IMG/VR virus record: IMGVR_UViG_2563366802_000015 | Source of the DNA: a virus | Lineage: Duplodnaviria; Heunggongvirae; Uroviricota; Caudoviricetes | DNA: 10,148 bases | Reading direction: 5' to 3' (one strand) | In this document: positions 6,991 through 9,394 of the stretch, piece after piece | Position numbering within the stretch: position 1 is the first letter of the stretch | Layout of the letters: each line of letters starts with the position of its first letter | Position numbers and translations under genes: made by a program | The notes under the pieces: model-generated | The model's input: the letters and a program-made list of their open reading frames with translations, nothing else | Told to the model about the DNA's origin: nothing | The model's database searches: none

Positions 6991-8195
6991 TTAGATTCCC
7001 TCAACTATTTTCATAATTCTAGCTGCATCATTCTTTTTGTCTTGATATTCAGCATAGGCTTGTTTTGATTGCACGATTAGGTCATTATATGTCAATATTT
7101 TTCCATTGATAGAAAGTAATTGCATATTTATAAAGTGTTGGTTCTCTTGTAAATATCCAGAGCCAACCAGGAATATTACTTCTATATGCGGTATATTTCC
7201 ACCTGGGCAATTTTTAGGGTTATTGGAGAACCATTGTGTCGTTGCCTGTACATATTTATTACCTTGTGCGACTAGGTTCATTATATCTGGGTGCACTTTA
7301 GGTCGTTTCATCTCAATAATTACATGCTTGCCAGAAACGGTTTTGAAAGCGATATCAATACGAGCACCGCTAGCAGCATCAGGGTTTATCTGTTTTAGTT
7401 CCTTGGTCAATGTTTGCTCCATAACAGATGTGCCTGTGACTCTTTCCCATGAAGGATCCAATAACCATAAATGATCATATAAATACATTTGTACAGCTCT
7501 TTCAAGCTGATTTTCATCAGTTATTTTTTGGAATTTTTCAATTACTTTAAGGCGTTGCGAAGTAATTTCATAAAACATGCTTGCTTCAATGTCATTGACA
7601 GATGCAAATACATCTTTAAAATTTTCTGATTGAAGGTTGCTTATTTTATCTAATGCATCAAGGTTGTCTTGAATTCTAAGTCTTTCAAAGGCTAATACCG
7701 TATTTTTTAATACGGTTTTTCTTGCTGCTTTTTGTTCTTCCTCATTACCAGAAAAACGGAATGTGTTTACTCGTCCAATTAACTTTTCGGCACTTTCTCT
7801 CTCATGTTTTTTGAGAGAATTCAGCCATTCACTTACTATTGGAGTATTGCTTTTAACTTCATTTACTCCTTTTTCGCGTCTCCATTTATCCCAATCTTTA
7901 TCGATTAGTTGTAGCGTTCTTTCCAGAAAACCTTTAAGTACAGGGTATCTTGGATCATTCTGTTGTAGTTTTTGACGAGAAGATGTTGCCATATCAGGCT
8001 TTTCGTTATCATCTAGAAAATCGGCGACTATTTCACCGACCAGATAATTGGTGAATACTTTAGCACTTCCAAATTCTAATAATATGTCCTCCTCAAAAAC
8101 ACGTCCGTGAGAGATTACAGTAATGCTGTTGTTAGATATTTCAGGGTCTTTCTTTAACTGTGATGGCTTAACTACACTGCCAATGTACCCACTAA
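6991..8195 (-). pseudogene. C-terminal fragment of IS5-disrupted GHKL-ATPase/nuclease gene (carries the PD-(D/E)xK-like motif)
   Basis: The minus-strand ORF 6991-8265 starts inside IS5; its native part begins at the IS5 boundary (8195). It contains a restriction-endonuclease-like core, GARIDIAF-x11-VIIEMKRPK (Asp codon 7354-7356, Glu 7312-7314, Lys 7306-7308). Its frame is continuous with the upstream fragment once IS5 plus one target duplication is removed. Confidence 0.75.
8192..8195. repeat. IS5 target-site duplication, left copy (CTAA)
   Basis: CTAA immediately outside the left IS5 terminus and identical to 9391-9394. IS5 is known to make 4-bp duplications at YTAR targets. Confidence 0.8.
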
Positions 8196-8211
8196 GGAAG
8201 GTGCGAACAAG
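8196..8211. repeat. IS5 terminal inverted repeat (transposase-proximal end)
   Basis: GGAAGGTGCGAACAAG matches the IS5 terminus as recalled and is a 15/16 inverted match to 9375-9390. Confidence 0.85.
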
Positions 8212-8227
8212 TCCCTGATATGAGATC

Positions 8228-9244
8228 ATGTTTGTCATCTGGAGCCATGGAACAGGGTTCATCATGAGTCATCAACTTACCTTCGCCGACAGTGAATTCA
8301 GCAGTAAGCGCCGTCAGACCAGAAAAGAGATTTTCTTGTCCCGCATGGAGCAGATTCTGCCATGGCAAAACATGGTGGAAGTCATCGAGCCGTTTTACCC
8401 CAAGGCTGGTAATGGCCGGCGACCTTATCCGCTGGAAACCATGCTACGCATTCACTGCATGCAGCATTGGTACAACCTGAGCGATGGCGCGATGGAAGAT
8501 GCTCTGTACGAAATCGCCTCCATGCGTCTGTTTGCCCGGTTATCCCTGGATAGCGCCTTGCCGGACCGCACCACCATCATGAATTTCCGCCACCTGCTGG
8601 AGCAGCATCAACTGGCCCGCCAATTGTTCAAGACCATCAATCGCTGGCTGGCCGAAGCAGGCGTCATGATGACTCAAGGCACCTTGGTCGATGCCACCAT
8701 CATTGAGGCACCCAGCTCGACCAAGAACAAAGAGCAGCAACGTGATCCGGAGATGCATCAGACCAAGAAAGGCAATCAGTGGCACTTTGGCATGAAGGCC
8801 CACATTGGTGTCGATGCCAAGAGTGGCCTGACCCACAGCCTAGTCACCACCGCGGCCAACGAGCATGACCTCAATCAGCTGGGTAATCTGCTGCATGGAG
8901 AGGAGCAATTTGTCTCAGCCGATGCCGGCTACCAAGGGGCGCCACAGCGCGAGGAGCTGGCCGAGGTGGATGTGGACTGGCTGATCGCCGAGCGCCCCGG
9001 CAAGGTAAGAACCTTGAAACAGCATCCACGCAAGAACAAAACGGCCATCAACATCGAATACATGAAAGCCAGCATCCGGGCCAAGGTGGAGCACCCATTT
9101 CGCATCATCAAGCGACAGTTCGGCTTCGTGAAAGCCAGATACAAGGGGTTGCTGAAAAACGATAACCAACTGGCGATGTTATTCACGCTGGCCAACCTGT
9201 TTCGGGCGGACCAAATGATACGTCAGTGGGAGAGATCTCACTAA
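8228..9244 (+). CDS. insH: IS5 family transposase InsH (DDE transposase)
   Basis: 338-aa ORF whose sequence ([34 protein letters not shown] ... [14 protein letters not shown]) matches E. coli IS5 InsH as recalled. An alternative start at ATG 8264 gives the 326-aa form. Confidence 0.95.
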
Positions 9245-9374
9245 AAACTGGGGATAACGCCTTAAATGGCGAAGAAACGGTCTAAATAGGCTGATTCAAG
9301 GCATTTACGGGAGAAAAAATCGGCTCAAACATGAAGAAATGAAATGACTGAGTCAGCCGAGAAGAATTTCCCCG

Positions 9375-9390
9375 CTTATTCGCACCTTCC
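9375..9390. repeat. IS5 terminal inverted repeat (distal end)
   Basis: CTTATTCGCACCTTCC, whose reverse complement GGAAGGTGCGAATAAG matches 8196-8211 with one mismatch. Confidence 0.85.
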
Positions 9391-9394
9391 CTAA
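9391..9394. repeat. IS5 target-site duplication, right copy (CTAA)
   Basis: CTAA immediately outside the right IS5 terminus, identical to 8192-8195. Confidence 0.8.

Follow-up and report, generated by a model that had tools for sequence, protein, structure and literature searches.

R.HgiDII, one of the enzymes after which the BbrUII/HgiDII restriction family is named, has been reported to carry an N-terminal GHKL domain (Orlowski and Bujnicki, 2008), and M.HgiDII methylates GTCGAC (PMC5867850). Defense by the Vibrio cholerae protein VcSduA requires both its ATPase and its nuclease, as seen with the E27A and K557A variants, respectively (PMC12137116). In P2-like prophages, a defense hotspot has been defined between gpA and gpQ (Rousset et al., 2022; PMC9122126), and a 2026 preprint describes defense-related pseudogenes as rare at P2 hotspot loci, at about 2% of P2 pseudogenes.

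The window analyzed here, a stretch of 10,148 bp, very likely captures a recent IS5 knockout of a BbrUII/HgiDII-family gene in the restriction-modification (R-M) module of a P2 prophage, leaving a locus that would lack restriction while keeping methylation (R- M+). Its features are the following:

3473..5788, plus strand: P2-type replication gene A (gpA), from Pfam Phage_GPA (E=2e-122) and the annotation of an intact locus, L001.
5900..6949, plus strand: gene for a C5 cytosine DNA methyltransferase of 349 aa, identical to WP_000598783.1, from Pfam, NCBIfam and PADLOC.
6962..6985, no strand assigned: G+C-rich hairpin, CCCCCCTG-TCAAAAAA-CAGGGGGG, read from the sequence between the convergent genes.
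6991..8191, minus strand: 3' part of the restriction gene, from the final base of codon 253 through codons 254-652 to the stop codon; it encodes what remains of an Hsp90-like middle domain, then a helical region, then the Shedu-like PD-(D/E)xK nuclease domain at the C terminus.
8192..8195, no strand assigned: left copy of the target-site duplication, CTAA, 4 bp, read from the sequence.
8196..9390, plus strand: IS5, a complete element of 1195 bp that retains both of its 16-bp terminal inverted repeats.
8264..9244, plus strand: gene for the IS5 transposase (326 aa when read from the ATG at 8264), from Pfam, NCBIfam and a gene call in a second locus, L002.
9391..9394, no strand assigned: right copy of the target-site duplication, CTAA, 4 bp, read from the sequence.
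9395..10148, minus strand: 5' part of the restriction gene, with codons 1-251 whole and codon 252 represented by its first base; it covers a GHKL ATPase domain and the start of the middle domain.

The terminal inverted repeats of the element, GGAAGGTGCGAACAAG and GGAAGGTGCGAATAAG, match at 15/16 positions, and the copy is 99.9% identical across 1195 bp to annotated IS5 in many E. coli genomes. Its CTAA duplication satisfies the IS5 target motif, 5'-YTAR-3' (PMC5009759). A sequence-only reading of this DNA had placed IS5 at 8196-9390 between two CTAA copies, and these borders are correct. The transposase, for which an alternative longer ORF of 338 aa begins at 8228, matches Pfam DDE_Tnp_1 and DUF772 and scores 365 bits against the NCBIfam model transpos_IS5_4 (cut-off 140). 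It is encoded on the plus strand, opposed to the interrupted restriction gene.

We tested excision of the element in silico using six variants. A 652-aa ORF was recovered only by deleting IS5 together with one CTAA copy (1199 bp); deletion of IS5 alone produced a stop at codon 254. The rebuilt gene is identical, at 1959/1959 nt, to WP_001279022.1, an intact gene of E. coli CFSAN061771 annotated as a 'BbrUII/HgiDII family restriction enzyme', and because of this identity the rebuilt frame is not a chance match. Across the entire rebuilt window (8949 bp), the alignment to the CFSAN061771 genome was gapless with 2 mismatches, both in gpA. The proposal that the two minus-strand ORFs beside IS5 are halves of one gene is thus borne out by the restored frame of 652 codons and by the identical intact allele.

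IS5 splits the gene at codon 252/253, between the ATPase and the nuclease. Residue V252 combines base 9395 with TT from the repeat; residue 253 is S, whose codon has its first two bases within the CTAA repeat. The junction given earlier, ...FEGKDVKV-S-GYIGSVV..., is right as written, but S had been taken for the junction residue; the accompanying count of 251 residues, a junction residue and 400 residues holds with V252 in that role. In the interrupted allele, the 5' frame continues into IS5 and reaches a stop at 9282-9284, yielding a 288-aa product of 252 native residues plus 36 IS-encoded ones. On the other side, an IS5-derived ATG at 8265 is in frame with the 3' part and opens a mechanical ORF of 424 aa (6991-8265).

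The sequence-only reading had expected an uninterrupted allele in related strains, and we found it in genome sequences: the uninterrupted junction and full methyltransferase-plus-restriction (M+R) module are present in 30 of the 5426 complete E. coli genomes, and phage PhiR44_1 carries the same module, its R protein being identical. APEC O2-211, like CFSAN061771, is a strain with the intact allele. In some of the 30 genomes the gene is labelled 'ATP-binding protein' or the match is 3048-3049 bp long, and we considered whether these might be further broken alleles; this was rejected, as the protein encoded there is intact and the same. The matches differ in length because the C6 and G6 runs in the intergenic hairpin vary by 1 bp among genomes.

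The IS5 junction itself was absent from all 5426 complete E. coli genomes searched, and the exact 288-aa fusion product occurs in one draft assembly only, GCA_000408605.1, the source of the window. This draft is scaffold-level, with 3078 N bases in a 20.9-kb locus, and IS5 is multi-copy in E. coli, raising the possibility that a repeat was mis-joined in the scaffold and that the real gene is intact. Such an artefact is extremely improbable given that both junctions are contiguous, that the element is full length, and that a perfect 4-bp duplication lies at a YTAR-fitting site, which a mis-join would not create. We also rejected the idea that prophage genes are missing from this assembly, as the gaps are runs of N and not deletions.

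To assign the rebuilt protein to a family, we compared it with profile models and homologues. It scores 751 bits against the NCBIfam equivalog NF050001 (cut-off 550), with residues 4-651 aligned in a single stretch to profile positions 1-658 of 659. This full-length match holds for the rebuilt protein; neither fragment is full length by itself. The PADLOC model REase_II also matches (E=3e-91). Among the 120 homologues listed, nearly all have 647-704 aa with coverage of 96-100%, and relatives as distant as 44% identity are likewise single chains, about 650-690 aa long, that are colinear with the rebuilt protein, with no gap at the junction, as the proposal of one split gene anticipated.

These data bear directly on whether the flanking ORFs could instead be naturally separate genes for an ATPase and a nuclease subunit, with IS5 lying between them. 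Each mechanical ORF does have an ATG start, and Pfam detects only the N-terminal ATPase domain, such that the halves look unrelated at first. However, IS5 itself supplies the start codon of the downstream ORF and the stop codon of the upstream one, the 30 genomes and the phage carry the uninterrupted allele as a single gene of 1959 bp, almost every one of the 120 listed homologues is a single chain continuous over the junction, and the family model runs end to end. Separate genes are thus refuted by the family model, the identity to the intact gene and the homologue alignment, and we assign this possibility a negligible probability.

The restriction protein can be divided into three parts. Pfam HATPase_c_3 matches residues 26-149 (9702-10073; E=2e-25), and 28 homologues keep E30, N34, D58, G60, G62 and G96-G101 unchanged, corresponding to GHKL motifs that include GRKGIGK. 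Foldseek aligned ~400 columns to the N-terminal and middle domains of Hsp90/TRAP1 (E about 1e-12). The C-terminal nuclease domain occupies about residues 495-652 (6994-7467) and contains a conserved E-D-ExK (+Q) nuclease motif of invariant residues E511, D532, E546, K548 and Q562, of which D532 (7354-7356), E546 (7312-7314) and K548 (7306-7308) are candidate catalytic residues. Its top structural match was E. coli SduA (8ps5; E=1.6e-5, TM 0.52), followed by other PD-(D/E)xK nucleases. A profile search with this domain against PDB sequences gave no meaningful match, and Pfam SduA_C matched 6 of the 28 homologues (best E=2.6e-6) and left the rebuilt protein itself unmatched; the domain in the rebuilt protein is named by fold comparison only, Pfam alone being silent. 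A PD-(D/E)xK fold is well supported, and membership in the Shedu clade is likely but not firm.

An architecture of GHKL ATPase, Hsp90-like middle domain and Shedu-like nuclease is the one called 'paraMORC3' or Shedu type 1D, and the phage record labels the identical R protein ParaMORC3. The enzyme is a fusion of a GHKL ATPase and a likely Shedu-type nuclease rather than a simple nuclease, a point missed by the sequence-only reading. A WonAB-like identity, met in the GHKL literature, was considered and rejected, as WonAB is an unrelated ABC ATPase system; the relevant protein in the WonAB paper is VcSduA.

The methyltransferase gene, convergent with the restriction gene, is intact, as had been claimed: it shows no difference from the gene at uninterrupted loci. 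It matches Pfam DNA_methylase (PF00145; E=1.3e-55), NCBIfam dcm and PADLOC MTase_II (E=2e-88), and the corresponding mechanical ORF is longer, starting from a TTG at 5798. A search for methyltransferase homologues returned no characterized enzyme close enough for transfer of specificity; the match named after HgiDII is only 58% identical. The claim that the split gene is the nuclease partner of this methyltransferase agrees with the family models and with distant loci (L007-L009), where the homologues adjoin a convergent C5 methyltransferase gene, in one case with a Vsr gene in between. The hairpin between the two genes is probably a shared bidirectional terminator. A terminator scan missed it and returned in this place just a weak stem that overlaps it (6980-7001).

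The module is cargo in the gpA-gpQ defense hotspot of a P2-like prophage. Within the window, the hotspot with the R-M module is bounded on its left by gpA, and the portal gene gpQ follows the R gene both at the intact locus L001 and in PhiR44_1. This prophage setting had gone unnoticed in the sequence-only reading.

Taken together, this is an ordinary event in which an IS has recently disrupted a member of a known gene family. We propose that a P2-like prophage integrated beside cpxP in E. coli carried a type II-like R-M module, formed by the 652-codon restriction gene and the convergent C5 methyltransferase gene, and that a complete IS5 recently transposed into the CTAA site at codon 252/253. 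The insertion ends the native frame after 252 residues, adds the 36 IS-encoded ones, and parts the ATPase from the nuclease domain as well as the nuclease from its native promoter and start codon. Restriction activity has most likely been lost. Host and prophage DNA probably remain methylated (R- M+), a state expected because the methyltransferase gene is untouched and is transcribed from the other strand.

Could the nuclease still be made? The in-frame ATG in IS5 could in principle permit translation of the nuclease-bearing fragment, and a 3' fragment started within IS5 (at 8265 or 8238) might act as a deregulated nuclease, tolerated through protection by the methyltransferase. At its left end, IS5 offers 24 open codons that lead in frame into this fragment, a gene caller predicted a 415-aa product there, and B. 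cereus Shedu stripped of its regulatory N-terminal region has a constitutively active, toxic nuclease (bioRxiv 10.1101/2023.08.10.552793). On the other hand, a promoter scan of the minus strand found no sigma-70-like promoter within or immediately upstream of the left end of IS5, inspection by eye found no convincing Shine-Dalgarno sequence before the ATGs at 8265 and 8238, and transcription from the native promoter would need to traverse 1.2 kb of IS5 in antisense. In addition, ATPase-dead VcSduA lost defense and gained no activity, and an in-frame ATG could be present by chance, the frame odds being about one in three. We therefore consider a tolerated, deregulated nuclease highly unlikely. 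There is, by analogy, very little chance that IS5 has rewired the gene rather than made it a pseudogene, with the ATPase-less fragment serving as a constitutive nuclease that the methyltransferase holds harmless.

Under the knockout that we favor, the locus has the sequence-level state of an orphan methyltransferase, with M identical to intact loci and R split by IS5. The sequence-only reading suggested two outcomes of such an insertion, an orphan methyltransferase or relief from toxic restriction. Both, with costly restriction added to the second, can reasonably be expected from established R-M biology, and the insertion, known from one assembly, may have been either selected or neutral.

This locus offers a clean, datable IS knockout of a P2-hotspot defense gene, with 0 substitutions in 1959 bp relative to intact alleles, and bears on whether defense systems are lost by decay or by swapping, because such pseudogenes are reportedly rare. 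It also illustrates the expected order of R-M decay, in which restriction is lost first and the methylase retained. Finally, HgiDII-type 'type II' enzymes share the GHKL-ATPase plus Shedu-like nuclease architecture, linking a classical family to a recent defense family. None of these points, whether the example of decay, the order of loss or the link between families, would surprise a specialist.

How does this locus compare with known systems? The closest is the BbrUII/HgiDII family itself (NF050001; REBASE R.HgiDII and R.BbrUII). Once rebuilt, the present enzyme matches the equivalog model from end to end above its cut-off, and the two-gene layout with a C5 methyltransferase is the same; the difference is that the present copy is interrupted by IS5. 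GTCGAC is the site of the prototypes, and for the E. coli system the family name is what suggests a site and an activity. VcSduA (paraMORC3 / Shedu type 1D) consists of a GHKL ATPase, a middle domain and a DUF4263 nuclease, and the rebuilt protein, with its likely Shedu-type nuclease, has the same domain order. VcSduA is a single-gene system, whereas the present family is consistently paired with a C5 methyltransferase and is hence R-M-like. In the IS hits described in cas genes (PMC10359306), a resident IS, including IS5 at YTAR, likewise inactivates the nuclease of an immune system; here, the target is instead the restriction gene of an R-M module in a prophage hotspot. As in other P2-like gpA-gpQ hotspots, gpA immediately precedes the module and gpQ follows it at intact loci, and its interrupted restriction gene represents an uncommon case of a defense pseudogene at a P2 hotspot.

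A complete IS5 element interrupts a minus-strand restriction (R) gene next to a C5 methyltransferase (M) gene, at the coordinates and between the CTAA copies that the sequence-only reading had given.

Features of the interrupted locus
5900-6949, plus strand: C5 cytosine methyltransferase (M) gene, neighbour of the split R gene
6991-8191, minus strand: 3' part of the R gene
8192-8195 and 9391-9394: CTAA direct repeat flanking IS5
8196-9390: complete IS5, 1195 bp, with a CTAA repeat on either side
8264-9244, plus strand: IS5 transposase (Pfam DDE_Tnp_1 and DUF772; NCBIfam IS5 model)
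9395-10148, minus strand: 5' part of the R gene

The terminal inverted repeats of the element (GGAAGGTGCGAACAAG and GGAAGGTGCGAATAAG) are identical at 15 of 16 positions, its transposase scores 365 bits against the NCBIfam IS5 model (cut-off 140), and over its full length it is 99.9% identical to annotated IS5 copies of many E. coli genomes. The CTAA duplication agrees with the documented IS5 target motif, 5'-YTAR-3' (PMC5009759).

We tried six excision variants of IS5, and a long ORF appeared only when the element and one CTAA copy (1199 bp) were taken out, giving 652 codons on the minus strand with the joint ...FEGKDVKV-S-GYIGSVV.... The frame and ORF length proposed earlier therefore stand; the label of the junction residue does not, as a recount places V at 252 and S at 253. 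The rebuilt gene is identical over 1959/1959 nt to the intact, annotated gene for WP_001279022.1, a 'BbrUII/HgiDII family restriction enzyme' of E. coli CFSAN061771, and the rebuilt window as a whole (8949 bp) can be aligned to this genome without gaps and with two mismatches, both within the replication gene. These are substitutions 5 bp apart in replication gene A, at window positions 4733 and 4738.

The flanking ORFs might instead be naturally separate genes. The rebuilt protein, however, aligns to the NCBIfam equivalog NF050001 from end to end as a single unbroken match (751 bits, cut-off 550). Its best 120 database relatives are nearly all 647-704 aa long with coverage of 96-100%, the exceptions being truncated or partial entries. 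In an alignment of 28 of these relatives, with identities down to 44%, the homologues run colinearly and without a gap over the junction, and G254, directly after it, is invariant. The identical intact allele, the one-stretch family match and the gapless alignment refute separate genes and identify the two ORFs as one; the outcome named in advance as refuting the sequence-only reading did not occur.

Uninterrupted alleles also exist in related strains. An 800-bp empty-site probe matched 30 of the 5426 complete E. coli genomes searched; none of the 30 was interrupted, and each carried the full M and R module. A probe spanning the IS5 junction had no match among the 5426. Records in which the gene is named 'ATP-binding protein', or in which the match covers 3048-3049 bp, were considered as further broken alleles and rejected, since all encode the same intact protein; the differing match lengths reflect single-bp variation in the C6 and G6 runs of a hairpin between the M and R genes. 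This hairpin (6962-6985, between the convergent genes) varies among otherwise identical loci (L003, L004, L005 and L006), with C5 in several genomes and G5 in one. The last of these is phage PhiR44_1 (PV340563.1). It has this module at 6021-9069, flanked by gpA and gpQ, with the products annotated as 'Dcm protein' and 'ParaMORC3'; R matches the rebuilt protein at every residue, and M carries a single change, F112L. PhiR44_1 is a deposited 32.4-kb phage genome with E. coli C given as host.

Only one assembly on record, the draft GCA_000408605.1 (scaffold KE137187.1), has the exact 288-aa product in which the N-terminal fragment runs into IS5; the 20.9-kb locus around the window holds 3078 N bases there. 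Other parts of the prophage in this scaffold are interrupted by runs of N, which is why its portal, terminase and lysis genes appear truncated or absent. In the same assembly, the gene caller called an IS5-chimeric ORF over the 3' fragment. A mis-join in a draft could in principle have placed IS5 here, but this is unlikely because mis-joining would not leave an exact 4-bp repeat of a YTAR site on either side. The absence of substitutions in the split gene, together with the near-canonical IS copy, indicates that the insertion is recent.

The M gene shows no difference from its copy at intact loci and, unlike R, is transcribed on the plus strand. RefSeq and the gene caller place its start at the ATG at 5900 (349 aa); a longer version of the ORF, 383 aa, would begin at a TTG at 5798, 10 bp past the gpA stop. 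Convergent C5 methyltransferase genes also lie beside R relatives of 48% and 44% identity whose chromosomal surroundings are unrelated, and many R and M homologues among the matches listed have equally long longest contigs, which suggests that they share contigs. The pairing of R with a C5 methyltransferase is conserved, in line with the earlier view that the split gene is the nuclease partner of an intact methyltransferase. At the 44% locus, from a gammaproteobacterial MAG (L009), a Vsr very-short-patch repair gene (6035-6436) lies between the two. Such genes are typical of m5C systems; the E. coli prophage module lacks one.

Pfam recognizes only an N-terminal GHKL ATPase in the rebuilt protein (HATPase_c_3, residues 26-149), whose ATP-binding motif residues are invariant among the 28 relatives. 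In an AlphaFold2 model (mean pLDDT 77), some 400 columns align with Hsp90 and TRAP1, a stretch that takes in the ATPase and middle domains. When residues 470-652 (window 6994-7542) were modelled separately (pLDDT 80), the best structural match was E. coli Shedu SduA (8ps5; E=1.6e-5, TM 0.52), followed by PD-(D/E)xK nucleases including FokI, Card1, EndoMS and EcoO109I. Residues E511, D532, E546, K548 and Q562, invariant in the alignment, are counterparts of PD-(D/E)xK motifs I-IV as described for Shedu. Pfam SduA_C recognizes 6 of the 28 relatives and misses the rebuilt protein itself. We therefore regard the predicted nuclease fold as well supported, and placement in the Shedu clade as likely but not firm. 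This architecture matches earlier descriptions of R.HgiDII, for which a GHKL domain was noted and the C-terminal domain left unassigned (Orlowski and Bujnicki, 2008); of paraMORC3, defined as GHKL, S5 and RE-fold domains with E-D-ExK motifs and often in R-M contexts (Iyer et al., 2008); and of Shedu type 1D, to which GHKL-DUF4263 proteins were assigned (Gu et al., 2023). Vibrio cholerae VcSduA has the same architecture and loses defence in ATPase and nuclease mutants alike (PMC12137116). A classical 'type II' restriction family would thus have its architecture in common with GHKL-ATPase-Shedu nucleases, raising the question of whether such enzymes use ATP.

IS5 splits the gene within the middle domain. 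The native frame ends at residue 252, followed by 36 residues that the IS encodes, and the nuclease domain loses its own promoter, start codon and ATPase. A deregulated nuclease could arise if the 3' fragment were translated from in-frame ATGs in the IS5 left end (8265 and 8238), yielding a chimeric minus-strand ORF of 424 aa (6991-8265) or 415 aa; N-terminally truncated Shedu, which is toxic, would be the analogue (bioRxiv 10.1101/2023.08.10.552793). We consider this outcome highly improbable: a promoter scan found no promoter-like site on the minus strand in the IS5 end or upstream of this ORF, and the ATPase-dead mutant of VcSduA shows a loss of function, not a gain. Most likely, judging from the sequence, the locus is restriction-negative and methylation-positive. 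When R-M systems decay, restriction is expected to be lost first, because losing the methylase first would leave host DNA open to cleavage by the restriction enzyme. The event may have been selected, for example by relieving self-damage or removing a barrier to DNA uptake, or it may be neutral. The split itself is confirmed, and its interpretation as loss of the nuclease is supported at the level of sequence.

The window covers the left arm of a P2-like prophage, with genes for integrase, repressor and Cox as well as replication gene A. At intact loci the module is bordered by gpA on one side and by the portal gene gpQ on the other, a cos-proximal hotspot for anti-phage cargo (Rousset et al., 2022; PMC9122126). 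The R-M cargo (5798-10148) has 36-38% GC and about 20 YTAR sites per kb, versus 48.6% and about 10 in the P2 core (1-5788); with roughly twice the site density, the AT-rich cargo is therefore a dense IS5 target. According to a 2026 preprint, few pseudogenes of defence systems are found in the hotspots of P2 and P4; an IS5-split defence gene here is uncommon, yet not unexpected. We regard it as a recent and ordinary event in which IS5 knocked out a restriction gene already known and annotated, within a prophage hotspot that was itself known.
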